Made by a program: the position numbers and the translations under genes
Shown: in pieces, positions 8,693-46,498 of the stretch
How positions within the stretch are numbered: the stretch's first letter is position 1
Layout: each line of letters opens with the position of its first letter
The notes under the pieces: generated by a model
The model's database searches: none
Told to the model about the DNA's origin: nothing
What the model saw: the letters and a program-made list of their open reading frames with translations, nothing else
Source of the DNA: Anaerolineales bacterium
GTDB lineage: Bacteria > Chloroflexota > Anaerolineae > Anaerolineales > Villigracilaceae
DNA length: 64,000 nucleotides
NCBI GenBank assembly: GCA_049578465.1
Contig: JBAUMB010000055.1
Span: 18,085-82,084 of the forward strand
Direction of reading: 5' to 3'

Positions 8693-10303
8693 ATGCAAAC
8701 CCAAAAACTCTTTCTTAAAGATTTTCTTTTCATCCTGCCTGTCTCTTTGATTCTCGGCGCGGGGCTGGCATCCATCCAAAATGGCGCGTGGTGGATCGGC
8801 TGGCTGGGTTTTTCCGCGCTCTTCATCGTTGGGTTGATCGCGCTGGTCATTGCATGGCGTTGGGGCGAGGGCGGCAAGACTCTCGCATGGATGATCGGGC
8901 TTGCACTTCTGCTTCGGCTGGCGGCGGGCGTCGCAGTTTATATTGCCTTGCCCATCAACGGTCATAATTCTGCGGACGATAAAGCCGGTTATGTCTTCAC
9001 CGACGCGCATCGCCGCGACGATCAAGCCTGGGGACTCGCCAGTTCAGATAAGCCATTGTGGTCGGCGTTCGATCAAAGCTATTACACCGATCAGTACGGT
9101 GGATTGCTTGCCTTCAGCGCGATTACGTATCGAGTTCTTTCGCCGGATGCACATCGTCCGTTGTTGATTCTTCTGCTCGCGGCTTTGACCGCTGCACTCG
9201 GCGTTCCCTTTCTTTATAAAGCCACGCGTCTGCTCTGGGATGATAAGCTGGCAACCGTTACCTGTTGGCTTTTTGTTCTCTATCCCGAATCGATTCTTAC
9301 TGGCGGCGCGCAAATGCGTGAGCCGTTTCTTTTAACATTTATTGCGATGTCATTATGGGGCTTTGCCGATTGGTTGAAACAAGGACAAAGCGTTGCCCTG
9401 AGCCTGTTGAAGGGTCACGGTTGGATTTGGATGGCGATTGGCTTCGTCGGGATGTTGATGGTTTCACCGGCAATTGCATTGGCAACTTTGGTGATCTTTG
9501 CCGTTTGGGTTTATTTGCGCGGCGATCATAAACGAATCCCATGGCAAGCATTGGTTGTGCTCTCTGTGATTTTTATTCTCGGTCTACTCGTTCTTTTATG
9601 GGAATTGAATCGTACTCACGATTTCGGCTCTTCATCTCCGGTTGGTATGGTCTTGGATTGGGTCCGCAACGCTGTGAAATACAATATATATCGCCTCGAA
9701 CGCGGCTCGGGTTGGATTCAATCGTTATTCAGAAAAATGAGCACCAGCGGACAATTATTGTTTGCAATCATTTATGGCTTCTTGCAACCGGTTCTGCCCG
9801 CCGCATTCATCGAGCCGACCACGTTGACTTGGAAGATCATTGCCATTCTGCGCGCAATGGGATGGTATGCGATTTTACCGTTGATGATTTACAGTTTGAT
9901 TGCAGCTTGGCGCACACCGCCTGGATCGGAACGCCGTGTGTGGCTTTGGATTTCCGCCGTCTCATGGGTGTGGATTTTGATCTGCTCTATTAAAGCCGGT
10001 GGCGATCAATGGGACAATCCGCGTTATCGGTTGATTCTTTTCGCTTTCGAAGCATTGACCGCCGGTTATGCCTGGACGTGGTGGCGCGCGCATCGTGATG
10101 CCTGGTTGCCGCGCATTACGCTAGTCGAGGTGTTGGCAGTGTTGATCTTCCTGGAATGGTATATCAGCCGTTATTATCATTGGGGCGGACAAATGCCGTT
10201 CTTCTTGATGATCGGCTTGATCGTACTGGTCAGTGTTGTGATTATCGGCGGGGGCTGGCTTTGGGATCGACGTGCCGCTTCAAAGTCCCGCTTGACACGC
10301 TAA
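8693..10303 (+). CDS. polytopic membrane protein, GT-C-like (function unknown)
   Basis: 536 aa with more than 10 hydrophobic segments. Acidic loop motif FTDAHRRDDQAW follows the first TM block. No confident family. Confidence 0.5.
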   Translation: MQTQKLFLKDFLFILPVSLILGAGLASIQNGAWWIGWLGFSALFIVGLIALVIAWRWGEGGKTLAWMIGLALLLRLAAGVAVYIALPINGHNSADDKAGYVFTDAHRRDDQAWGLASSDKPLWSAFDQSYYTDQYGGLLAFSAITYRVLSPDAHRPLLILLLAALTAALGVPFLYKATRLLWDDKLATVTCWLFVLYPESILTGGAQMREPFLLTFIAMSLWGFADWLKQGQSVALSLLKGHGWIWMAIGFVGMLMVSPAIALATLVIFAVWVYLRGDHKRIPWQALVVLSVIFILGLLVLLWELNRTHDFGSSSPVGMVLDWVRNAVKYNIYRLERGSGWIQSLFRKMSTSGQLLFAIIYGFLQPVLPAAFIEPTTLTWKIIAILRAMGWYAILPLMIYSLIAAWRTPPGSERRVWLWISAVSWVWILICSIKAGGDQWDNPRYRLILFAFEALTAGYAWTWWRAHRDAWLPRITLVEVLAVLIFLEWYISRYYHWGGQMPFFLMIGLIVLVSVVIIGGGWLWDRRAASKSRLTR

Positions 10304-10319
10304 CCACAGGGTTTATAAT
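10292..10319 (+). promoter_or_regulatory. consensus sigma-70-type promoter for gmd: TTGACA-N16-TATAAT
   Basis: TTGACA at 10292-10297 (inside the last codons of the upstream gene), 16-nt spacer, TATAAT at 10314-10319. RBS GAAGAGGAG and ATG 10359 lie downstream. Confidence 0.6.
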
Positions 10320-10333
10320 TCAACAGTTGAATT
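10317..10333. promoter_or_regulatory. perfect 17-bp palindrome AATTCAACAGTTGAATT overlapping the gmd -10 box (candidate operator)
   Basis: 8+1+8 perfect inverted repeat checked base by base. Shares TATAATTCA...TGAATTTTGA with the site at 34228-34252. Confidence 0.55.
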
Positions 10334-10358
10334 TTGAGTTGGTTTGAAGAGGAGTTAA

Positions 10359-11324
<966 letters not shown>

Positions 11325-13857: not shown

Positions 13858-14814
13858 ATGACCATCTCCCTAATTATTCCTGTTTATAACGAAGAAGAAA
13901 ATCTATCCGTTCTCTTCGACGCGGTCATCAAGGCTATGACGCCGTTGAAAAAACCGTGGGAGGTGATCTTTGTCAATGACGGGAGCACAGACGGAAGTCT
14001 CGAAGTGTTGAGGGAATTGGCTAAAAAAGATAAACACGTTCGTGTAATTGTTTTTCGTCGCAACTTTGGACAAACCGCGGCGATCTCAGCCGGTATTGAT
14101 CATGCCAAAGGAGAAGCCATCGTTTTGCTGGATGCCGATCTCCAAAACGATCCCGCCGATATCCCAATGTTATTATCCAAACTCGAAGAGGGCTACGATG
14201 TAGTCAGCGGCTGGCGCAAGGATCGAAAAGACAATGCCATCACGCGCACTCTGCCTTCGATGATGGCGAACGGTTTGATCTCGTGGGTGACCGGCGTCCA
14301 TCTGCATGATTATGGCTGTACGCTTAAAGCATATCGCCGCGAAGTATTGGACGAATTTCGGTTGTATGGCGAGACCCATCGTTTCATCCCCGTCTTTGCT
14401 CATTCGGTGGGGGCACGCATCGTAGAACTACCAGTTCATCATCATCCGCGCCTTCATGGAAAAGCAAAATATGGTTTGGAGCGGACCATGAAGGTGGTGC
14501 TCGATCTGTTCACTGTTAAATTCCTGCTGAGCTATGGAAACAAACCGATCCGCTTGTTTGGCGGCACCGGAATGGTATTGATGTTTGCAAGTTTTGTGAC
14601 CCTTATATATCTCTTTGTCCGTAAAATCATCGAAAGCACTTCCGTGACCGCCTCGCCACTTTTGCCGCTGGCCATCATGTTTTTGATCCTCGGGTTTCAA
14701 TCCATTCTCATGGGATTGATCGCAGAACTTCTGGTGCGCACCTATCATGAGTCTCAGCGCAAACCCACTTACACGGTAAGAGAAATTATTGAAGGTAGAA
14801 AGGAACGCAAATGA
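13858..14814 (+). CDS. GT2 polyprenyl-phosphate glycosyltransferase (GtrB/ArnC/DPM1-like)
   Basis: ISLIIPVYNEEENL, FVNDGSTDGS, VLLDADLQNDP, two C-terminal TMs; typical GtrB architecture. Confidence 0.85.
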   Translation: MTISLIIPVYNEEENLSVLFDAVIKAMTPLKKPWEVIFVNDGSTDGSLEVLRELAKKDKHVRVIVFRRNFGQTAAISAGIDHAKGEAIVLLDADLQNDPADIPMLLSKLEEGYDVVSGWRKDRKDNAITRTLPSMMANGLISWVTGVHLHDYGCTLKAYRREVLDEFRLYGETHRFIPVFAHSVGARIVELPVHHHPRLHGKAKYGLERTMKVVLDLFTVKFLLSYGNKPIRLFGGTGMVLMFASFVTLIYLFVRKIIESTSVTASPLLPLAIMFLILGFQSILMGLIAELLVRTYHESQRKPTYTVREIIEGRKERK

Positions 14815-24243: not shown

Positions 24244-25146
24244 ATGCAAGTGTATAATCTAAAATTGGATTTCATGGTGGTCGGAGCAGAAAGATGCGGA
24301 ACTACTTGGCTCGCGGATATGCTGCGTCAGCACCGGGATGTTTTTATCCCCGTGCAAAAAGAAATCCATTACTTCAATCGCAAGTTTGTGGATTTTCCCG
24401 ATATCGATAACTATAATTTCGATAAACCCATAGATTGGTATTGGCGGTTTTATGCTGAAGCAGCCGCGGGGCAAAAAAAGGGGGAGGTCTGTCCGTCTTA
24501 CCTCTGGGACATAGCGGCGCCTGAACGCATCCATGCATTCGACCCGGAAATAAAAATCATGGTCATGTTACGGAATCCTATTGAGCGGACTTTTTCAGCC
24601 TATCGATTTTGGATGCAGCGCGGAGTCGTGAGACCTATGCCGTTCCGGGAAGCTGTTAAGCGTTATTCGGATTTGCTTTTACAGCGAAGCATGTATTTTG
24701 ATCAACTAACGCGTTATTACAATTTTTTTCCCAAAGAACAAATCCGAGTGTGGTGTACAGATAGCTCCCCGGCGACTACGATGGTTTCATTTCTTAAGGA
24801 TGCGGAAGATTTTATTGGTGTACAGCAATTTGTGCCGGAAAATGCCTTATCGCGGTCTAATGTTACCAGTGTATCTCGCTTCTGGATTATCAGTTGGCTA
24901 ATGGCTCGATTTCGCCGTTTTCTCCGCCGCTATCGGGCATTCTCCTGGCCAGTCGATCTTTTGCGGAAGGTGAAGATTGCGGATCAGATGGAGTTCATGC
25001 GACGACGGAATATGACTGAGACCCTTCCTACGGAAATCTCGATGATGACAGAGCAGGATCGGATTTGGTTGACAAGTCTTTTGCAAAAAGATATTCAGAA
25101 TTTAGAAGCTTTACTAAAAATCGATCTAAGCGCTTGGAGGTCTTAA
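24244..25146 (+). CDS. sulfotransferase (PAPS-dependent)
   Basis: 5'-PSB-type loop VVGAERCGTTWLADML and 3'-PB-type LRNPIERTFSAYRF. Confidence 0.8.
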   Translation: MQVYNLKLDFMVVGAERCGTTWLADMLRQHRDVFIPVQKEIHYFNRKFVDFPDIDNYNFDKPIDWYWRFYAEAAAGQKKGEVCPSYLWDIAAPERIHAFDPEIKIMVMLRNPIERTFSAYRFWMQRGVVRPMPFREAVKRYSDLLLQRSMYFDQLTRYYNFFPKEQIRVWCTDSSPATTMVSFLKDAEDFIGVQQFVPENALSRSNVTSVSRFWIISWLMARFRRFLRRYRAFSWPVDLLRKVKIADQMEFMRRRNMTETLPTEISMMTEQDRIWLTSLLQKDIQNLEALLKIDLSAWRS

Positions 25147-34191: not shown

Positions 34192-34224
34192 GTTAAGTCC
34201 CCGGGTTTTCAGTTTCCCATATCG

Positions 34225-34233
34225 TGTTATAAT
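34225..34233 (+). promoter_or_regulatory. extended -10 promoter element TGTTATAAT upstream of the winged-helix regulator gene
   Basis: TGn + TATAAT at 34225-34233; no good -35 box. Confidence 0.5.
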
Positions 34234-34247
34234 TCAGATGCTGAATT
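34231..34247. promoter_or_regulatory. 17-bp palindrome AATTCAGATGCTGAATT overlapping the -10 box (candidate operator, same motif as at gmd)
   Basis: 7+3+7 inverted repeat. Half-sites AATTCA/TGAATT are identical to 10317-10333, with the same position relative to TATAAT and the same 3' flank TTTGA. Confidence 0.55.
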
Positions 34248-34745
34248 TTGAATTACGAAGTGCTGCGCATGGAATCTTCTAACGATACGATTAGCGAACT
34301 GTCTTTACTGGAACAAGTGGAACTTGATCCCGACGTGAATCAATCTGCACTGGCGACGCAATTGGGCGTGGCAGTTGGAACCGTTAACTGGCACCTTAAA
34401 AGATTGATCGCTAAGGGCTATGTCAAAGTTCAGCGCGCGGAGCGCAAGAAACTTCGCTACATCATCACACCGGAAGGCATTGCTCTGCGCGCCCGACTTA
34501 CCGTGGATTACATCGAGCGTTCCTTCGACGTCTATCGTAAAACTCGCTCGCGGGTCAAAAAACATTTGAATGCGATTCATTCAGCGGGCTTTAAGAAAGT
34601 TCGGATTGTTGGTGATGGCGATATCGCGGATATTTGCCGCCTTTCGTGCATCGAGCAAGGCATTGTAGTTGTACAGGATAAGAATGTTCCTGCCCTTGAA
34701 ATCAAAGGATATAAAGTTTTCTTGAATATAGGAGAAGCCAAATGA
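34248..34745 (+). CDS. winged-helix (MarR/ArsR-like) transcriptional regulator with a small Rossmann-like C-terminal domain
   Basis: HTH region NQSALATQLGVAVGTVNWHLKRLIAKGYVKV; C-terminal KKVRIVGDGDIADI. The promoter layout (-10 at 34228) argues that ATG 34269 (MESSND...) is the true start, not TTG 34248. Confidence 0.7.
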   Translation: MNYEVLRMESSNDTISELSLLEQVELDPDVNQSALATQLGVAVGTVNWHLKRLIAKGYVKVQRAERKKLRYIITPEGIALRARLTVDYIERSFDVYRKTRSRVKKHLNAIHSAGFKKVRIVGDGDIADICRLSCIEQGIVVVQDKNVPALEIKGYKVFLNIGEAK

Positions 34746-35770
34746 GAACGGAACGTCATATCTTGATCACGGGCGGCGCGGGATATATCGGTTCGCTCCT
34801 GACCTCGGAGTTGCTGCGCGCCAACTATCGCGTGACCGTTGTCGACAGCCTATTGTTCGGCGGCGAGTCTTTGCTTGGATTTTTGCACCACCCTAATTTT
34901 CATTTTGTCAAAGCAGATGTGACTGAGCCTCATAAGATCAAAGATGTGGTGCGCGACCATTCTGCAAGCGAGAAATGGCCCAAGCCTGATGCGGTGGTTC
35001 ATCTGGCGGCGATTGTGGGATTCCCTGCTTGCCAGGCGGTCGGCAAGCAGGTGGCGTGGAAGTATAACGTCGAGGCGACGAAAATGGTCTTCGAGCAGGT
35101 GTCCGACTTGGGTGCGGAACGATTCGTGTTTTCATCCACCTATAGTAATTATGGTCTCTCGACCGATGGCAAACCGGTTACCGAAGAATCACCGCTCATG
35201 CCGCAATCTCTATATGCCGAAACGAAAGTTGCCGCAGAGCAATATTTGCTTGAACAGAAAGACGCGACCTGTTCGCCTTTATTGTTTCGCTTTGCGACGT
35301 TATATGGAATTTCGCCGCGCACACGTTTTGATTTGATCATCAATCAATTTGTCTTGGATGCTTTTACAAAGCGCCAACTGTTGATTTATCAACGCGGCTA
35401 TTCGCGTTCGTTCGTGCATGTCCGGGATGTGGTGCGCGGCATTATGATTGGTTTGGATGCGGCGCAGAAAAAAGTGCGCGGGCAAATTTATAACCTCGGC
35501 AGTGACGATGGTAACTATACTAAGGATCAAATCGTAAAACTGGTGTTGCGGCGCATGCCTGAAACGGAAGTCGAATATAAAGACTTGACTTTTGGCGGCG
35601 ATATGCGCGACATCACCGTTTCATTTGCCAAGATCAAGCGTGAACTTGGATTTGAAACAACGCTGGATGTGGACGATGGCATTCGCGATTTATTGTTTGC
35701 GCTGAAGACGGGATTGATTCGCAATCCGTTGGATGAACGTTACCGGAACGCGCAATTTATTGTGCAATAA
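34742..35770 (+). CDS. NAD-dependent nucleotide-sugar epimerase/dehydratase (SDR; specificity unknown)
   Basis: ILITGGAGYIGS, YAETK catalytic motif, 342 aa, ATGA overlap with the regulator gene. Confidence 0.8.
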   Translation: MRTERHILITGGAGYIGSLLTSELLRANYRVTVVDSLLFGGESLLGFLHHPNFHFVKADVTEPHKIKDVVRDHSASEKWPKPDAVVHLAAIVGFPACQAVGKQVAWKYNVEATKMVFEQVSDLGAERFVFSSTYSNYGLSTDGKPVTEESPLMPQSLYAETKVAAEQYLLEQKDATCSPLLFRFATLYGISPRTRFDLIINQFVLDAFTKRQLLIYQRGYSRSFVHVRDVVRGIMIGLDAAQKKVRGQIYNLGSDDGNYTKDQIVKLVLRRMPETEVEYKDLTFGGDMRDITVSFAKIKRELGFETTLDVDDGIRDLLFALKTGLIRNPLDERYRNAQFIVQ

Positions 35771-35787
35771 TATTGGGAGAATAAATT

Positions 35788-36759
35788 ATGGCTGAAAGTT
35801 TTTGGCAAAACAAACGCGTCATTTTGACCGGCGGCGCGGGCTTTCTCGGTTCATTTGTGACAGAGAAGCTCAAAGGACGCGGCGCGATAGATATTTTTAT
35901 TCCGCGTATAGAGAATTACAATCTTGTTGATCCAAGCGATATTCGCCGCATGTATGATAATGCACTAAAAGGTGTAAGCCCAAAAGATATTGTTATCATT
36001 CACTTGGCTGCGCACGTTGGCGGGATCGGCGCCAACCGCGAACATCCGGCTGAATTTTTCTATGATAATTTGATGATGGGTGTGGAATTGATACATCAGG
36101 CATATCAGCGCGGCGTCGGTAAGTTTGTCGCAATTGGAACGGTCTGTGCTTATCCCAAGTTCACGCCCGTTCCATTCAAGGAAGAAGATTTATGGATCGG
36201 TTATCCTGAGGAGACCAATGCGCCGTATGGATTGGCGAAGAAGATGTTGCTGGTGCAGGCGCAATCGTATCGCCAGCAATATGGATTCAATGCGATTTAT
36301 CTTTTGCCGGTCAATCTTTATGGACCGCGCGATAACTTCAATCTACAATCATCCCATGTGATTCCGGCATTGATCCGCAAAGCCATTGAAGCCAAGGAAC
36401 GCGGCGAAAAGGAATTGTTGGTGTGGGGCGATGGCACACCGACGCGTGAATTTTTATACGTCGAAGATGCGGCAGATGGAATCATCAGCGCTGCGGAAAA
36501 ATATAATGGTTCTGAGCCGGTCAATCTCGGATCGGGCTACGAGATTTCGATCAAAAATTTGACCGAGATGATTGTTCGTCAAACTGGCTTCGAGGGAAAA
36601 CTGGTTTGGCAGACCGATAAACCCAACGGTCAACCGCGTCGAGGTCTGGATGTGAGCCGGGCGAAAGAATATTTTGGATGGAGTGCGCAAGTCCCGTTTG
36701 AAGAAGGGATGCGCCGCACCATCGAGTGGTTCAAGGAGAATCGTTCAAAGATTAAATAG
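35788..36759 (+). CDS. fcl: GDP-L-fucose synthase (GDP-4-keto-6-deoxymannose 3,5-epimerase/4-reductase)
   Basis: [51 protein letters not shown]; classic Fcl/WcaG motifs. Confidence 0.88.
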
Positions 36760-36761
36760 AT

Positions 36762-37610
36762 ATGGCAAAATCAATTGAGCTTGCTCGTCAACCAGAAACA
36801 ATTTATATCAAACCGTCCACCGGCTTGACCGCGCTCAACTTGCGCGACTTGTGGATCTATCGCGAACTGGTTTACTTCATGATCTGGCGCGATATCAAAG
36901 TGCGTTATAAGCAAACCGTGCTGGGCGCGGCATGGGCGATCATTCAGCCGGTGCTGACAATGCTGGTCTTCAACTTCATCTTTGGTAGTATCGCTAAAGT
37001 TCCGACCGATGGCATTCCCTATCCAATCTTTTCGTACACAGCGCTGTTGCCGTGGGGCTTGTTCAGCGCGGCGTTGAACAATGCCAGCCGTTCGCTGACG
37101 ACGAACACGAGCATGGTGACCAAGATTTATTTCCCGCGCCTTGTGCTTCCGCTGGCATCGGTGCTGGGCAACTTGGTGGATTTTGCCATCGCATTCCTAA
37201 TCCTGATCGTGATGATGTTCTATTACAAAGTAACGCCCACGGCCGCCATCTGGACCTTGCCGTTGTTCATCCTCCTTTCGATCATAGCCGCGCTGGGCGT
37301 TTCGTTATGGCTGGCCGCCATCAACGTTCAATATCGCGACGTGAACTACGTCCTGCCGTTCCTGACTCAATTCTGGATGTTCGTTACGCCGGTGGCTTAT
37401 TCATCCAAAGTGATTTCGCCCAAATGGCAGATCGTTTATTCGCTCAACCCGATGGCCGGCGTGGTCAATGGTTTTCGCTGGGCACTGCTCGGCACGCCCA
37501 CCGGTCCCAATTTGCAACTGCTTGTTTCGGTGGGCGTTTCTCTGATTGTCCTCGTGACCGGTTTATTCTACTTCCGCTACATGGAGCGGACGTTTGCGGA
37601 CATGATCTAA
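36762..37610 (+). CDS. wzm: ABC-2 type polysaccharide export permease (Wzm/TagG-like)
   Basis: RDIKVRYKQTVLGAAWAIIQPVLTMLVF N-terminal signature, 6 TMs, 282 aa. Confidence 0.85.
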   Translation: MAKSIELARQPETIYIKPSTGLTALNLRDLWIYRELVYFMIWRDIKVRYKQTVLGAAWAIIQPVLTMLVFNFIFGSIAKVPTDGIPYPIFSYTALLPWGLFSAALNNASRSLTTNTSMVTKIYFPRLVLPLASVLGNLVDFAIAFLILIVMMFYYKVTPTAAIWTLPLFILLSIIAALGVSLWLAAINVQYRDVNYVLPFLTQFWMFVTPVAYSSKVISPKWQIVYSLNPMAGVVNGFRWALLGTPTGPNLQLLVSVGVSLIVLVTGLFYFRYMERTFADMI

Positions 37611-37611
37611 C

Positions 37612-38904
37612 ATGACTACTGCTATTCGAGTTGATCACTTAGGCAAACGGTATCGCATCGGCGCGATGCAGACAAGATTCCATTATGGAATGCTGCGCGA
37701 CGTGCTGATGGATGTGGCGATGACTCCGGTGCACGTGTTTCGATCCATGACCGGCAAGTCCATGCGCGGCGCCGAAAACTTTTCTTACATTTGGGCGCTC
37801 AACGATGTTTCGTTTGAAGTTCAAGAAGGACAAGTGCTGGGCATCATCGGACGCAACGGCGCGGGCAAAAGCACTCTGCTCAAAATTTTAGCGCGCGTCA
37901 CCGAGCCGACGAAGGGCACGGTCTCCGTGCGCGGACGGGTTGGTTCGCTGCTTGAGGTCGGCACCGGCTTTCATCCGGAACTGACCGGCCGTGAAAACAT
38001 CTATCTCAACGGTGCGGTGCTTGGTATGAGACGCGGCGAGACCGAAAGAAAGTTCGACGAGATCGTGGCTTTCTCTGAGGTTGAGCAGTTCATTGATACG
38101 CCGGTCAAACGCTATTCGTCCGGAATGTATCTGCGGCTGGCGTTCGCAGTCGCCGCGCACCTTGAGCCGGAAATCCTGGTTGTGGATGAAGTCCTCGCAG
38201 TAGGCGACGCCGAATTCCAAAAGAAATGTCTCGGCAAGATGGGTGATGTGGCGCAACAAGGACGAACGGTTTTGTTTGTCAGTCACAACATGTCGGCTGT
38301 GCTGCGCCTGACTCAGGAAGCGCTTGTCATTGATAAAGGTCGCTTGATGATGCGCGCTCCTACCGCCGAAGCGGTAGATTATTATCTTTCCGCCGGACAC
38401 GCCGACGCGGGCGAACGTATTTGGGAAGCGGATGAAGTGCCTGAAATGGCTGCGCCGTTCACACCCATTTCTTTAAGGTTGAAAGATATGCGCGGGACTA
38501 TCGTAGATACGCTTCGCTCGACCGAACCGGCTGCCATTGAATTTGAATATCAACTCAGCGCGCCGACCACCGGTTTGCGCGTCGGTTTTTATCTCAGCAC
38601 CATGCGCGGCGATTATGTGTTGACCTCCTTCGATACCGATGAACCCGAAAAATTTGAGAAGTTCAGCGCGCGCAAAGCCGGACGATATGTCAGCCGTTGT
38701 ACCATTCCCGCCGACCTGTTCAACGAAGGCCGTTATTCGTTGGGAGTCAACGCCAGCTCGTTCGGAGTCCGCCGCTATTTTCTCGACGAGAACGCTCTGG
38801 CTTTTAACGTAGATGTTTCCGGCGCTCCCGGAACACATTGGCCCGAACCGCGTGTGGGGCCGATTCGCCCGCGCCTGGATTGGAAAATTGAAAAGTTAGA
38901 TTGA
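37612..38904 (+). CDS. wzt: polysaccharide export ABC ATPase (Wzt/TagH-like) with a C-terminal beta-sandwich extension of about 180 aa (Wzt_C-like)
   Basis: Walker A GRNGAGKST, signature YSSGMYLRLAF, Walker B ILVVDE. Residues from about 250 to 430 form an extra domain. Confidence 0.88.
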   Translation: MTTAIRVDHLGKRYRIGAMQTRFHYGMLRDVLMDVAMTPVHVFRSMTGKSMRGAENFSYIWALNDVSFEVQEGQVLGIIGRNGAGKSTLLKILARVTEPTKGTVSVRGRVGSLLEVGTGFHPELTGRENIYLNGAVLGMRRGETERKFDEIVAFSEVEQFIDTPVKRYSSGMYLRLAFAVAAHLEPEILVVDEVLAVGDAEFQKKCLGKMGDVAQQGRTVLFVSHNMSAVLRLTQEALVIDKGRLMMRAPTAEAVDYYLSAGHADAGERIWEADEVPEMAAPFTPISLRLKDMRGTIVDTLRSTEPAAIEFEYQLSAPTTGLRVGFYLSTMRGDYVLTSFDTDEPEKFEKFSARKAGRYVSRCTIPADLFNEGRYSLGVNASSFGVRRYFLDENALAFNVDVSGAPGTHWPEPRVGPIRPRLDWKIEKLD

Positions 38905-41346: not shown

Positions 41347-42213
41347 ATGGAATTGGAACTCGACATTCCTGATAGCGCCAGTCAATGGTACAAACTGAAA
41401 AAGAATCCGCGCCTGTTTTTTTGGTGGATGTTTCATCGAGCTACAACGCCGTTGCGCGTCCTGCCGGACTTTCTCGTGATCGGAGTAATGAAAGGCGGCA
41501 CAACTTCCTTCTTCAATTATCTGGCTCGGCATCCGCGGATCAATCCTCCGTTTCGCAAAGAAATAAAATTCTTTGACATCCACTATCCTGAAGGACTCGG
41601 CTGGTATCGCGCTCACTTTCCAACATGCTTCAAGATGAAGCCGGGGATGGCCACCGGCGAAGCGACGCCGTATTATATTTTTCATCCGACCGCGGCGAAT
41701 CGAATCGCGAAACTTTTGCCAAATGTTAAATTGATCGCGTTGCTTCGTAATCCTGTTGACCGCGCTTATTCGCATTACAATCACATGGTGCGCGTCGGCA
41801 GGGAATCTTTACCTTTTGAAGATGCCATCGGGCATGAAGCGGAGCGATTAAGCGGCGAAGAAGAGAAGATTATCGCCGATCCTCGCTATTCCACCTTTAA
41901 TCATCTGCATTATTCCTATCTCGCGCGCGGAAGATACATTGAACAACTTCAAAAATGGTTCGCGCTTTTTCCGCGTGAGCAAATGCTGATCCTTGCCAGC
42001 GAAGAGATTTATACTTCACCTGCCACCGCGTATCGCAAAGCGACAGAATTTCTTGGATTATCGGACTGGACGCCGAATGATTTCAAAACTTATAAGCAAG
42101 GTGTTTACGAAGAGATGCCTGCATCAACGCGGAATCATTTGATTAAATATTATCGTCCTTATAATCAAAAACTATACGGTTATTTGAAGAGAAATTTCGA
42201 TTGGGACAAGTAA
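41347..42213 (+). CDS. sulfotransferase (PAPS-dependent)
   Basis: FLVIGVMKGGTTSFFNYL (5'-PSB) and LLRNPVDRAYSHYNH (3'-PB). Confidence 0.8.
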   Translation: MELELDIPDSASQWYKLKKNPRLFFWWMFHRATTPLRVLPDFLVIGVMKGGTTSFFNYLARHPRINPPFRKEIKFFDIHYPEGLGWYRAHFPTCFKMKPGMATGEATPYYIFHPTAANRIAKLLPNVKLIALLRNPVDRAYSHYNHMVRVGRESLPFEDAIGHEAERLSGEEEKIIADPRYSTFNHLHYSYLARGRYIEQLQKWFALFPREQMLILASEEIYTSPATAYRKATEFLGLSDWTPNDFKTYKQGVYEEMPASTRNHLIKYYRPYNQKLYGYLKRNFDWDK

Positions 42214-43453: not shown

Positions 43454-44464
43454 ATGAACTGGAAAAATCAAGTTGTATTAGTCACTGGCGGCACGGGATC
43501 GTTCGGCAAGAAATTCGTCGAGATCATGCTCAAGGATTTCAAGCCGAAGAAGATCATCATCTATAGCCGCGATGAGTTGAAGCAATATGAAATGCAGGCT
43601 TCGGGATTTAATCATCCCTCGATGCGTTATTTCATCGGCGACGTGCGCGACCGCGAGCGTCTTCTGCGCGCCATGCAGGGTGTGGATGTAATTGTCCATG
43701 CCGCGGCATTGAAGCAGGTGCCCGCCTGCGAATATAATCCGATGGAAGCGGTGAAGACTAATATCATGGGCACGAGCAACGTGGTCGAAGCCGCGCTGGA
43801 TGCAGATGTCAAAAAAGTGATGGCACTCAGCACCGATAAAGCTGTCAACCCGGTGAATTTATATGGCGCGACCAAACTCGCGGCGGAGAAGTTGACCGTT
43901 CAAAGTAACGCGTATGCCGCGGGTTCAGCGACCCGCTATTCGTGCGTTCGATACGGAAACGTGGTCGGGAGTCGCGGTTCGGTGGTGCCGGTCTTTCTGA
44001 AGCAACGCGAGTCGGGCAAGGTTACAATCACCGATGATCGCATGACGCGCTTTTGGTTGTCGTTGGAACAAGGCGTCCGATTTGTAATTACTTGCATCGA
44101 ACAAATGGAAGGCGGCGAAGTCTTCGTGCCAAAGATTCCGAGCATGAAAGTGATTGATCTCGCCAAAGCCATCGCGCCGAATGCGGATGTAAATGTGATC
44201 GGCATTCGGCCCGGTGAGAAGTTGCATGAGGTTTTGATCTCTGAAGATGAGGCGCGCAACACTGTTGAGTTGGATCAGATGTTTGTAGTTCAACCGGCGG
44301 AGGCGTTTTGGTTCGGCTACTCGTGGCAAAAGCAAGGAAAATTGCTTTCGGACGGATATCGTTATTCAAGCGACAATAATAAGGAATGGCTGGATGTGAA
44401 CGGCATCAAAAGATTTGTCGAGCCGTTCGAGAAGTTGTTTGCCGCTGGAAAGCTGGAAGGATAG
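43454..44464 (+). CDS. pseB: UDP-N-acetylglucosamine 4,6-dehydratase (inverting), PseB/FlaA1-type
   Basis: VLVTGGTGSFGKKF, IIIYSRDELKQ, YGATKLAAEK, VRYGNVVGSRGSVVP, MTRFW, GIRPGEKLHEVLI, YSSDNNKEWL. Collinear with H. pylori FlaA1 as I remember it. Confidence 0.85.
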   Translation: MNWKNQVVLVTGGTGSFGKKFVEIMLKDFKPKKIIIYSRDELKQYEMQASGFNHPSMRYFIGDVRDRERLLRAMQGVDVIVHAAALKQVPACEYNPMEAVKTNIMGTSNVVEAALDADVKKVMALSTDKAVNPVNLYGATKLAAEKLTVQSNAYAAGSATRYSCVRYGNVVGSRGSVVPVFLKQRESGKVTITDDRMTRFWLSLEQGVRFVITCIEQMEGGEVFVPKIPSMKVIDLAKAIAPNADVNVIGIRPGEKLHEVLISEDEARNTVELDQMFVVQPAEAFWFGYSWQKQGKLLSDGYRYSSDNNKEWLDVNGIKRFVEPFEKLFAAGKLEG

Positions 44465-44467
44465 GAG

Positions 44468-44491
44468 CGATATTCGAGTGATTGAATATCG
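44468..44491. repeat. perfect 8-bp inverted repeat CGATATTC-N8-GAATATCG between pseB and the RmlD-like gene
   Basis: Checked base by base: 44468-44475 is the reverse complement of 44484-44491. Confidence 0.5.
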
Positions 44492-44500
44492 AACATTATC

Positions 44501-45421
44501 ATGCGATTGCTGATCACCGGTTCAAGTGGACTCCTCGGTCTAAATTTGGCTTTGGATGCAACGCGCACGCATCACGTCATTGGCGTGGATCGCAGTACGC
44601 TTGCGTCCGTTCCATTTGAGTTGATCCACGCCGATCTTCTTGATCCGGACGCCGCGTATAGAATCGTCTCCAAATCCAAGCCGGATGCGGTCATCCATTG
44701 CGCGGCACTGGCGGACGTGGATGTCTGCGAATCGAATCCCGATCTTGCGTATCAGATGAATGCAGATTTGCCGGCGCGGCTGGCTGATGCTTGTGCGCGG
44801 CGTCAAGTTCGCCTCATTCACATTTCGACAGATGCAGTTTTCGATGGGCAAAGGGAGGATGTTTACGTCGAGGGCGATGCTCCAAACCCGAAAGGCGTTT
44901 ATGCTAAAACAAAACTAGAGGGCGAACGCGCCGTTTTGCAAGTTAATCCACTAGCGATTGTGGCGCGTGTTAATTTTTATGGCTGGTCATTGAGCGGCAA
45001 GCGAAGTCTCGCCGAGTTCTTTATCAACAACCTCAGCACCGGCAAGAGCGTCAACGGTTTTACCGACGTGCTTTTTTGTCCGATGCTGGTCAATCATCTG
45101 GGCGATGTTTTGCTTGCGATGTTGGATCGCGGCTTGCGCGGTTTATATCATGTGGTGGGTCCGCAGGCGATGAGCAAATATCAGTTCGGAGTTGAGATCG
45201 CGCGCAAGTTTGGATTGAAGGAAAACCTGATTTCGCCGCAGTCCGTGGATAAGTCCAGCCTGACTGCACGCCGTTCCCACAATTTGTGGCTGTCTACTCA
45301 CAAATTGTCCACCGATTTGGATATGACTCTCCCGTCTTTCTCCACCGGCTTGAACGAGTTTAATACACAATACCAGCAGGGTTATCCACAGAAAATCCGC
45401 AGTTATCAACAGAATTCCTAA
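44501..45421 (+). CDS. RmlD-like (dTDP-4-dehydrorhamnose reductase family) sugar 4-ketoreductase
   Basis: MRLLITGSSGLLG, AVIHCAALADVDVCE, YAKTKLEGE, 306 aa. Confidence 0.75.
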   Translation: MRLLITGSSGLLGLNLALDATRTHHVIGVDRSTLASVPFELIHADLLDPDAAYRIVSKSKPDAVIHCAALADVDVCESNPDLAYQMNADLPARLADACARRQVRLIHISTDAVFDGQREDVYVEGDAPNPKGVYAKTKLEGERAVLQVNPLAIVARVNFYGWSLSGKRSLAEFFINNLSTGKSVNGFTDVLFCPMLVNHLGDVLLAMLDRGLRGLYHVVGPQAMSKYQFGVEIARKFGLKENLISPQSVDKSSLTARRSHNLWLSTHKLSTDLDMTLPSFSTGLNEFNTQYQQGYPQKIRSYQQNS

Positions 45422-45430
45422 AGGTGAGAC

Positions 45431-46498
45431 ATGGAAATCAAACTGCATGACCGAACCATTGGATCGAATCATCCGACCTATTTCATCGCTGACATCGCCG
45501 CAAATCATGACGGCGATTTGGAACGTGCCAAACTATTGATCCGCCTCACGCGCCAAGCCGGAGCGGACGCGGCTAAATTCCAGAATTTTGACGCGCCGAA
45601 AATTGTTTCTGATTACGGCTTCTCGCACATGAACGCGCAAGTGAGTCATCAAGCCTCGTGGAAAAATTCGGTGACGGAGGTTTATCGCGCCGCGTCGATT
45701 CCGTTTGAATGGACGATGATTTTAAAAGAAGAGTGCGAGAAAGTCGGCATCCATTATTTTTCATCGCCGTATGATTTCGAAGCCATTGATTTTCTCGATC
45801 CTTATGTTGAAATCTATAAAGCCGGTTCGGGCGAAATTGATTGGATCGAAGCCTTGGAGCGCATGGCGAGCAAAGGCAAACCGTTCTTTGTCGCAACGGG
45901 CGCGTCAACGATCGGCGAAGTTCAGCGCGCGGTTCATGCCATCTTGAAAATCAACAAGCAATTGGTGTTGATGCAATGCAATACCAATTACACTGCCAGC
46001 CCGAAGAATTATGATCATCTGCATGTCAACGTATTGAAGACATATGCGACGATGTTTCCGGATGTAATTCTGGGATTGTCGGATCACACACACGCGGTCG
46101 CGCCGGTTCTCGCGGCGGTGACGCTGGGTGCGCGCGTCATTGAGCGGCACTTCACCGATAGCAATGACCGCGAAGGTCCCGATCATAAATTTGCGATGAA
46201 CCCCGAGAACTGGGCAAAGATGGTGGAAGAGACTCGTTTATTGGAACGCTCATTGGGCGGCGCTGATAAATTCATCGTGGAGAACGAAAAAGATACTGCC
46301 ATCGTTCAGCGTCGTTGTCTGCGTGCGGCGCGTGAAATTAAAGCAGGTGAAATTTTTACGCGCGATATGATCGACGTGCTCCGTCCTGCCACGCCGGGCG
46401 CGATCAAGCCCTATGAAATTCCGGACGTGATCGGTACGAAGGCATTGCATGATTTTAAATTGGGTCAAGAATTGAGATGGACGGATTTGGGCGCGTAA
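45431..46498 (+). CDS. nonulosonic acid synthase (NeuB/PseI/LegI/SpsE family) with a C-terminal SAF domain
   Basis: PTYFIADIAANHDGDLERAKLLI, AKFQNF, LGLSDHT, ERHFT, C-terminal IKAGEIFTRDMIDVLRP. Confidence 0.85.
   Translation: MEIKLHDRTIGSNHPTYFIADIAANHDGDLERAKLLIRLTRQAGADAAKFQNFDAPKIVSDYGFSHMNAQVSHQASWKNSVTEVYRAASIPFEWTMILKEECEKVGIHYFSSPYDFEAIDFLDPYVEIYKAGSGEIDWIEALERMASKGKPFFVATGASTIGEVQRAVHAILKINKQLVLMQCNTNYTASPKNYDHLHVNVLKTYATMFPDVILGLSDHTHAVAPVLAAVTLGARVIERHFTDSNDREGPDHKFAMNPENWAKMVEETRLLERSLGGADKFIVENEKDTAIVQRRCLRAAREIKAGEIFTRDMIDVLRPATPGAIKPYEIPDVIGTKALHDFKLGQELRWTDLGA

Follow-up and report, generated by a model that had tools for sequence, protein, structure and literature searches.

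A -10 box fused to a palindrome is conserved upstream of gmd and of a winged-helix regulator gene in Anaerolineae, pointing to a candidate autorepressor of a surface glycan locus

Why do two promoters of one glycan locus, one in front of a GDP-mannose 4,6-dehydratase gene (gmd) and the other in front of a gene for a small winged-helix protein, carry the same palindrome fused to their -10 boxes? In this study, we address this question for 64,000 nucleotides of DNA from Anaerolineales bacterium (assembly GCA_049578465.1, contig JBAUMB010000055.1, positions 18,085 to 82,084), hereafter called the window. The original prediction held that one combination of -10 box and palindrome recurs at both genes with shared half-sites, spacing and 3' flank. 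Both sites do read TTATAATTCA-N5-TGAATTTTGA, and all the coordinates proposed for TTGACA, N16, TATAAT and the palindromes were correct on re-reading. The elements of the two sites and the genes behind them are as follows.

10292..10297, forward strand: -35 hexamer TTGACA of the gmd promoter, within the 3' end of the preceding open reading frame of 536 amino acids (aa)
10314..10319, forward strand: -10 hexamer TATAAT of the gmd promoter, invariant in 84 of 84 distinct sites from loci selected by protein
10317..10333, no strand: putative operator palindrome O-gmd, AATTCAACAGTTGAATT, with 8-bp arms and one central base
10334..10337, forward strand: conserved right flank TTGA at the gmd site, which completes TGAATTTTGA and whose first T fits the operator
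10350..10354, forward strand: Shine-Dalgarno sequence AGGAG of gmd
10359..11324, forward strand: gmd, GDP-mannose 4,6-dehydratase (TIGR01472 score 432.7, cut-off 415)
34225..34233, forward strand: regulator promoter, extended -10 box TGTTATAAT (TG at 34225-34226, TATAAT at 34228-34233)
34231..34247, no strand: putative operator palindrome O-reg, AATTCAGATGCTGAATT, with 7-bp arms and three central bases
34248..34251, forward strand: conserved right flank TTGA at the regulator site
34269..34745, forward strand: regulator gene, encoding a 158-aa winged-helix protein, the candidate binder

At gmd, a 16-nt spacer separates the -35 and -10 hexamers, and the final three bases of the -10 box are the first three bases of the palindrome. 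O-reg is fused to TATAAT in the same register, and its promoter has a weak -35 hexamer (TTTTCA, 34206-34211). Both sites qualify as sigma-70-type promoters, by a consensus score of 12/12 at gmd and by TGTTATAAT at the regulator. The composite TTATAATTCA-N5-TGAATTTTGA occurs in exactly two copies in the 64 kb, one in front of gmd (10313-10337) and one in front of the regulator (34227-34251), and its parts TATAATTCA and TGAATTTTGA are each confined to these two sites in the window. The same two sites are the only ones in the window that match the core AATTCA-N5-TGAATT with no more than one mismatch. When 10 of the 12 core positions are required, the window contains ten sites versus 3.2 expected, and none of the eight imperfect ones has TAT or TTTG flanks.

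Such a pair of sites could in principle be a chance match, or the trace of a recent duplication of a promoter cassette that has no regulatory meaning. The 12-bp core by itself is weak evidence in a single window: shuffled windows contained 0.53 core matches on average, and 11 of 100 shuffles had two or more. The full composite specifies 19 bases, with an expectation of approximately 5e-7 per window, and the upstream regions of gmd and the regulator fail to align beyond approximately 25 bp. Beyond the window, more than 100 species-level genomes have the 19-base composite in front of the same two gene families, with unconserved flanks. These comparative data refute chance and duplication, to which we assign practically no remaining probability.

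The comparative data were collected in two ways. A scan of the window and its genome for the motif had been suggested as a check of the prediction; we scanned the window and a genome collection and found that the positions are not random. For the collection, one genome from each of approximately 185,000 species was scanned with the 24-bp pattern TATAATTCA-N5-TGAATTTTGA, which gave at least 120 matches. Among the matches listed, approximately 113 are in contigs of Anaerolineae/Chloroflexota, and seven are unrelated (Karelsulcia, Chitinophagales, and others) versus approximately four predicted by a uniform-composition estimate. Together with the window and the first homologue loci, the listed matches form a motif-selected set of at least 128 occurrences. 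In this set, the gene after the motif is gmd in approximately 64 cases (56-100% identical to that of the window) and an orthologue of the regulator in approximately 55. In two further loci the motif precedes a GT2 gene orthologous to window 13858-14814 (63-65% identical), and in one it precedes a GT-C-like gene followed by wzm. The exact composite matches thus listed fall in one glycan pathway, and a gmd site occurs together with a regulator site in at least seven assemblies.

The second collection consists of loci picked by protein alone, which are hence unbiased for DNA. For regulators selected in this way, from metagenomes and with 68-90% protein identity, each of the 77 distinct upstream regions contains the perfect 12/12 core, preceded by TAT and followed by TTG. 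No gmd gene was present within 4 kb of the regulator in these loci, and the gmd set was therefore obtained in a separate protein search; its 12 loci (81-92% identity) contain five distinct upstream regions, all five with the perfect core, TAT and TTG. The unbiased consensus is GTTATAATTCA-G-Y-N-R-C-TGAATTTTG, and the information content falls to approximately zero outside the roughly 25 bp of the composite. TTGAC is retained at the same spacing in the gmd homologue loci. In 1.47 Mb of loci examined, 224 of the 229 core sites are -10 composites, and the remaining five are second operators in tandem with a primary site at regulator promoters. In front of a regulator of 42% identity (L218) the composite is exact, and in front of one of 33% identity (L220) it matches at 11 of 12 positions. 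Two long-form relatives of approximately 205-227 aa have palindromes upstream of their own genes as well: CTGTTCAT-AGA-ATGAACAG in L221, which keeps the TTCA-N5-TGAA layout with different flanks, and an imperfect ACTCA-N5-TGAAT beside a -10-like box in L222. The named homologues of gmd and the regulator come from metagenome-assembled genomes (MAGs) of Anaerolineales and other Chloroflexi, which places the window in this lineage. The composite is extremely and specifically conserved at the gmd and regulator families across Anaerolineae.

Some loci depart from the arrangement of the window. In L073, one motif precedes a single gene run that includes the regulator, an SDR gene, and a gmd of the long type; this gmd starts approximately 1440 nt past the motif, after the SDR gene and inside the regulator operon. 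The long-type gmd paralogue (L073, L112, L116) is approximately 53% identical to the gmd of the window and has no motif of its own. Some MAGs encode two paralogous regulators, each behind its own composite (L077 and L094 in CAZCPP01; L024 and L086 in DATHRQ01). The L073 and L094 regulators have an N-terminal extension of approximately 12-15 residues.

What kind of site does this conservation describe? The palindrome arms are invariant and the central five nucleotides vary within R-Y-N-R-Y, giving the family consensus AATTCA-R-Y-N-R-Y-TGAATT, or (G)TTATAATTCA-RYNRY-TGAATT-T with its flanks. Invariant arms around a varying centre suggest a site contacted by a protein rather than a base-paired stem. 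The half-site centres are 10 bp apart, which places them on one helix face, as expected for a dimer of a winged helix-turn-helix (wHTH) protein. Among 211 distinct sites, a good -35 box (at least 5/6 at 16-18 bp) stands alone in 92 and a TGn extended -10 box alone in 41; two sites have both and 76 neither. The -35 box and the TGn element are mutually exclusive in these sites (Fisher p = 2.3e-10), suggesting that TATAAT acts as a real -10 box.

In one clade of regulators, whose proteins start with METQSDSSHDL, a second perfect AATTCA-N5-TGAATT lies upstream of the primary palindrome, at a distance of 25 bp from start to start, and spans the -35 region (L014, 1105-1121; L015, 4611-4627; L028, 4755-4771; L044, 6778-6794; L101, 2110-2126). 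A version with one mismatch is present in L091. The second palindromes are flanked by A on the left and T on the right, which suggests that the ideal operator would be A-AATTCA-N5-TGAATT-T. The L101 contig (JAGXRB010000400.1) is labelled 'Bacteroidetes bacterium' and has an Anaerolineae-type regulator with tandem operators; it is probably mis-binned.

Alternatively, the conserved element could act at the RNA level, either as a hairpin with a U-tract that terminates or attenuates upstream read-through, or as a 5' leader that controls translation or stability. The palindrome is followed by TTTT, and its right half and TTTTGA would fall in the first approximately 15 nt of the transcript, with conservation continuing past the palindrome. 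Furthermore, the regulator genes begin a median of 3 nt past TTTTGA without a Shine-Dalgarno sequence; the gmd genes have AGGAG, located 3-8 nt past the motif in most homologues. However, folding predicts only weak hairpins with at most two G-C pairs (-3.9 kcal/mol, z = -0.8, and -6.4 kcal/mol, z = -2.9), and a terminator scan called neither site. The invariant arms show no compensatory changes, and it is the loop positions that vary. A transcript starting approximately 7 nt past the -10 box would begin inside the palindrome and lack its left arm, and no Rfam 15 match was found anywhere in the window. An RNA-level element as the explanation of the site is very unlikely. A regulator start so close to the motif does imply a leader of approximately 15 nt. 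The conserved TTG may serve this very short leader, and TTTTGA may have a leader role alongside its role in the operator.

The original prediction took the winged-helix protein encoded next to the second site as a common dimeric binder that occludes both promoters and links gmd to the operon of the regulator, fcl, wzm and wzt, and the comparative evidence supports this proposal at every testable point. We propose a model in which each site is a sigma-70-type promoter with its -10 box fused to a 17-19-bp palindromic operator, and a homodimer of the product of 34269-34745 would bind both operators. The operator would span from -10 to about +8, so that the bound dimer would block RNA polymerase; proteins bound over the -10 box and the start normally repress. 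The regulator would then repress the gmd-led operon and its own operon (regulator, SDR, fcl-like, wzm, wzt, and further genes), with O-reg as a putative autoregulatory site. The gmd operon would provide GDP-6-deoxyhexose synthesis and lipid-linked sugar transfer, and the regulator operon ABC-transporter polymer export and terminal modification. One signal would therefore turn on GDP-6-deoxyhexose supply together with polymer assembly and export. An effector would relieve repression, with the small C-terminal alpha/beta domain as the likely sensor, and near-consensus promoters under a tight operator could give a wide on/off range. We infer the adjacent regulator as the binder, the repressive effect of binding, and the relief by an effector. 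Overall, we consider it probable that a dimeric wHTH autorepressor occludes both promoters and couples the two operons.

A different protein may read the same DNA. In this case the operator would be real, the binder would be another factor encoded elsewhere, and the wHTH gene would be one of its regulated targets. The conserved right-flank TTG, which a symmetric dimer site does not explain, would fit such a factor, as would the L116 regulator, discussed below. However, every one of the 77 protein-selected loci has the site in front of the regulator gene itself, which is a signature of autoregulation, and own-promoter sites extend down to 33% identity; the two distant long-form relatives also have similarly built palindromes of their own. 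Many more targets would be expected for a global factor, but the exact matches listed belong to one pathway. Binding by a different factor appears unlikely.

Alternatively, the regulator may bind the composite and activate, or have a dual role, for example by remodelling the promoter or by working with a co-activator. A good -35 box is often missing at the regulator promoters. However, the -10 box and the predicted start both lie within the site, the gmd promoter already scores 12/12, and the promoters without a -35 box have TGn, so that no activator is needed. We regard activation or a dual role as an unlikely function of the site.

Several observations weigh against the autorepressor model. 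The right-flank TTG(A/G) is at least 90% conserved at the primary sites, has no mirror image on the left, and lacks conservation next to the secondary operators; selection is thus acting on something beyond the symmetric operator. In L116, the recognition helix is altered (GTANLAIKNL) and the site is unchanged. The oligomeric state of the regulator is assumed, because the canonical MarR dimerisation fold is missing from its model. The C-terminal domain, the supposed sensor, gave no significant fold match when its isolated model was searched with Foldseek (E of 0.23 or higher). Finally, the scan covered the exact composite only and gives a minimum for the number of regulon members in each genome.

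Is the candidate protein suited to the role that the autorepressor model assigns to it? The original prediction placed its open reading frame at 34248..34745 with a TTG start. The ATG at 34269 is most likely the actual start, because the resulting 158 aa match nearly all homologues. The protein matches HTH_24 in Pfam (43.8 versus a cut-off of 21.9, E = 1.8e-11) and just passes two MarR cut-offs, both marginally (PF12802, 29.0 versus 27; PF01047, 26.5 versus 24.6). In the AlphaFold2 model (mean pLDDT 84.5), a wHTH domain (residues 4-66) is followed by a 38-residue helix (68-105) and a small beta-alpha-beta-beta-beta C-terminal domain; the model lacks the canonical six-helix MarR fold, in which the wHTH lies between N- and C-terminal dimerisation helices. 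In a Foldseek search with the full-length model, only the wHTH (approximately 80 of 158 aa) aligned to MarR-family structures, with TM of approximately 0.4. The best matches were FabT, HcaR, MepR, and MexR, with Streptococcus pneumoniae FabT (PDB 6jbx) at the top. A profile search of the PDB covered at most residues 7-91, at E values of 5e-4 or higher. The recognition helix GVAVGT(V/I)NWH(L/I)KR is nearly invariant among the regulators encoded behind the motif.

The 65 C-terminal residues of the protein have no Pfam match even at E up to 10, and the C-terminal domain has no sequence match in the PDB. A G-x-G-D-x-A motif in its beta-alpha-beta unit (residues 115-120) is invariant in regulator alignment A2 and is lost in some distant relatives. 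The family comprises approximately 800 representatives at 50% clustering (E up to 1e-10), and many members are longer (approximately 205-230 aa), with a Rossmann-like extension. For the C-terminal part of P0314 (L221) and P0337 (L222), a precomputed annotation gives PF22674 (C2185-like_N), which hmmscan did not recover even with E values up to 10 allowed. A speculative and rather unlikely extension of the model is that the regulator is a minimal nucleotide-sugar sensor, in which a GDP-sugar (GDP-mannose or GDP-6-deoxyhexose) or NADP(H) would operate a class-wide feedback or feed-forward glycan switch and TTTTGA would have an additional role as the 5' end of the very short leader that lacks a Shine-Dalgarno sequence. 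If so, the ligand could bind to the 50-residue domain with G-x-G-D-x-A, which is enlarged to a Rossmann-like domain in the long-form relatives, and the glycan under the switch could be a sulfated, fucose-type cell-surface glycan in Anaerolineae.

The gmd gene heads a same-strand, closely spaced run that extends to 21447 and is probably one operon. After gmd, the Pfam matches in this run are a GT-C/PMT_2-like protein, a GT2, an LPG_synthase_TM-like protein, a membrane protein, a methyltransferase, a GT4, and an AsnB-like protein. The other features of the locus are listed below.

8693-10303: gene of a conserved 529-536-aa protein, in every case immediately upstream of gmd and preceded by a GT4 gene (L206-L217); its last codons contain the gmd -35 box
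24244-25146: sulfotransferase gene
34742..38904, forward strand: run after the regulator, encoding an SDR epimerase/reductase, the fcl-like protein (35788-36759), Wzm, and Wzt, closely spaced or overlapping
41347-42213: sulfotransferase gene
43454-46498: nonulosonic-acid-type genes (PseB-like, RmlD-like, and NeuB)

The protein encoded at 8693-10303 has no Pfam or NCBIfam match. The regulator run continues with Capsule_synth-like, methyltransferase, and sulfotransferase genes to approximately 42213. The regulator is followed by the identical gene order in L001 and L003, though the upstream neighbours differ. The locus was originally assigned to GDP-fucose supply. The gmd part of this assignment stands, with a score above the equivalog cut-off, but the fcl-like protein scores 295.5 versus an NCBIfam equivalog cut-off of 500. 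The pathway product is therefore better described as a GDP-6-deoxyhexose, probably fucose, and the end product may be another 6-deoxyhexose because the fcl-like protein is below its cut-off. The locus also encodes several methyltransferases in addition to the two sulfotransferases and Wzm/Wzt, a gene mix that may point to a fucose-type surface glycan, sulfated or methylated, in an Anaerolineae bacterium.

How does the proposed switch compare with known regulators? The MarR-family autorepressors (MarR/marO, OhrR, SlyA, and FabT), whose palindromic operators lie over the -10/-35 region, resemble the proposed switch in their winged-helix head, in an AT-rich inverted repeat of approximately 17-19 bp at their own promoter that overlaps the -10 box, and in a small local regulon. 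Unlike in MarR proteins, the wHTH of the present regulator is located at the extreme N-terminus, with one long helix and then a small alpha/beta domain behind it. Unlike in MarR systems, the operator is invariant across a bacterial class and fused in register to a consensus -10 box. The best NCBIfam match is TIGR04176 ('MarR family EPS-associated transcriptional regulator'), which also combines a winged helix with polysaccharide loci. With a score of 65.7 versus a cut-off of 88, the regulator is not a member, and the model covers residues 17-105 only. No published operator of the TIGR04176 family was found in the literature searched.

Rex and TrmB-type regulators have the same domain order (N-terminal wHTH, helix, and C-terminal alpha/beta domain), but the regulator has no Pfam match to the sensor domains of either. 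A Rex-like Rossmann domain of the CoA_binding type was found neither by sequence nor by fold, and only the G-x-G-D-x-A motif is visible. The Rex box is TGTGAA-N4-TTCACA, with an arm polarity unlike the TTCA...TGAA of the composite. In Escherichia coli, RcsA/RcsB place the colanic-acid (wca) operon, which includes gmd and fcl, under one transcriptional signal; the parallel is functional, in the joint control of GDP-fucose-pathway genes and polymer export. RcsA/RcsB consist of an activator and a phosphorelay acting at a single upstream RcsAB box, and are unrelated to the present regulator in protein family, site, and mechanism.

No published description of the composite or of the regulator was found in the literature searched. 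Autorepressors of the wHTH type whose palindromic operator covers the -10 box are well known, and the present candidate is class-wide and unusually invariant, with a non-canonical regulator architecture. The mechanism is ordinary in kind; its low variation is the striking feature. Anaerolineae, few of which have been cultured, occur abundantly in soils, sediments, wastewater sludge, and microbial mats. With an operator of 19-25 bp, a candidate repressor of 158 aa, and a regulon of two operons, the locus offers a testable circuit for the control of a cell-surface glycan pathway. A near-consensus promoter with a single operator would be a compact and portable switch that could seed genetic tools for Chloroflexota, and the composite can serve as a sequence tag for locating the glycan locus in metagenomes. 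Because the arrangement is conserved across the class, a result from one species would generalise to hundreds.

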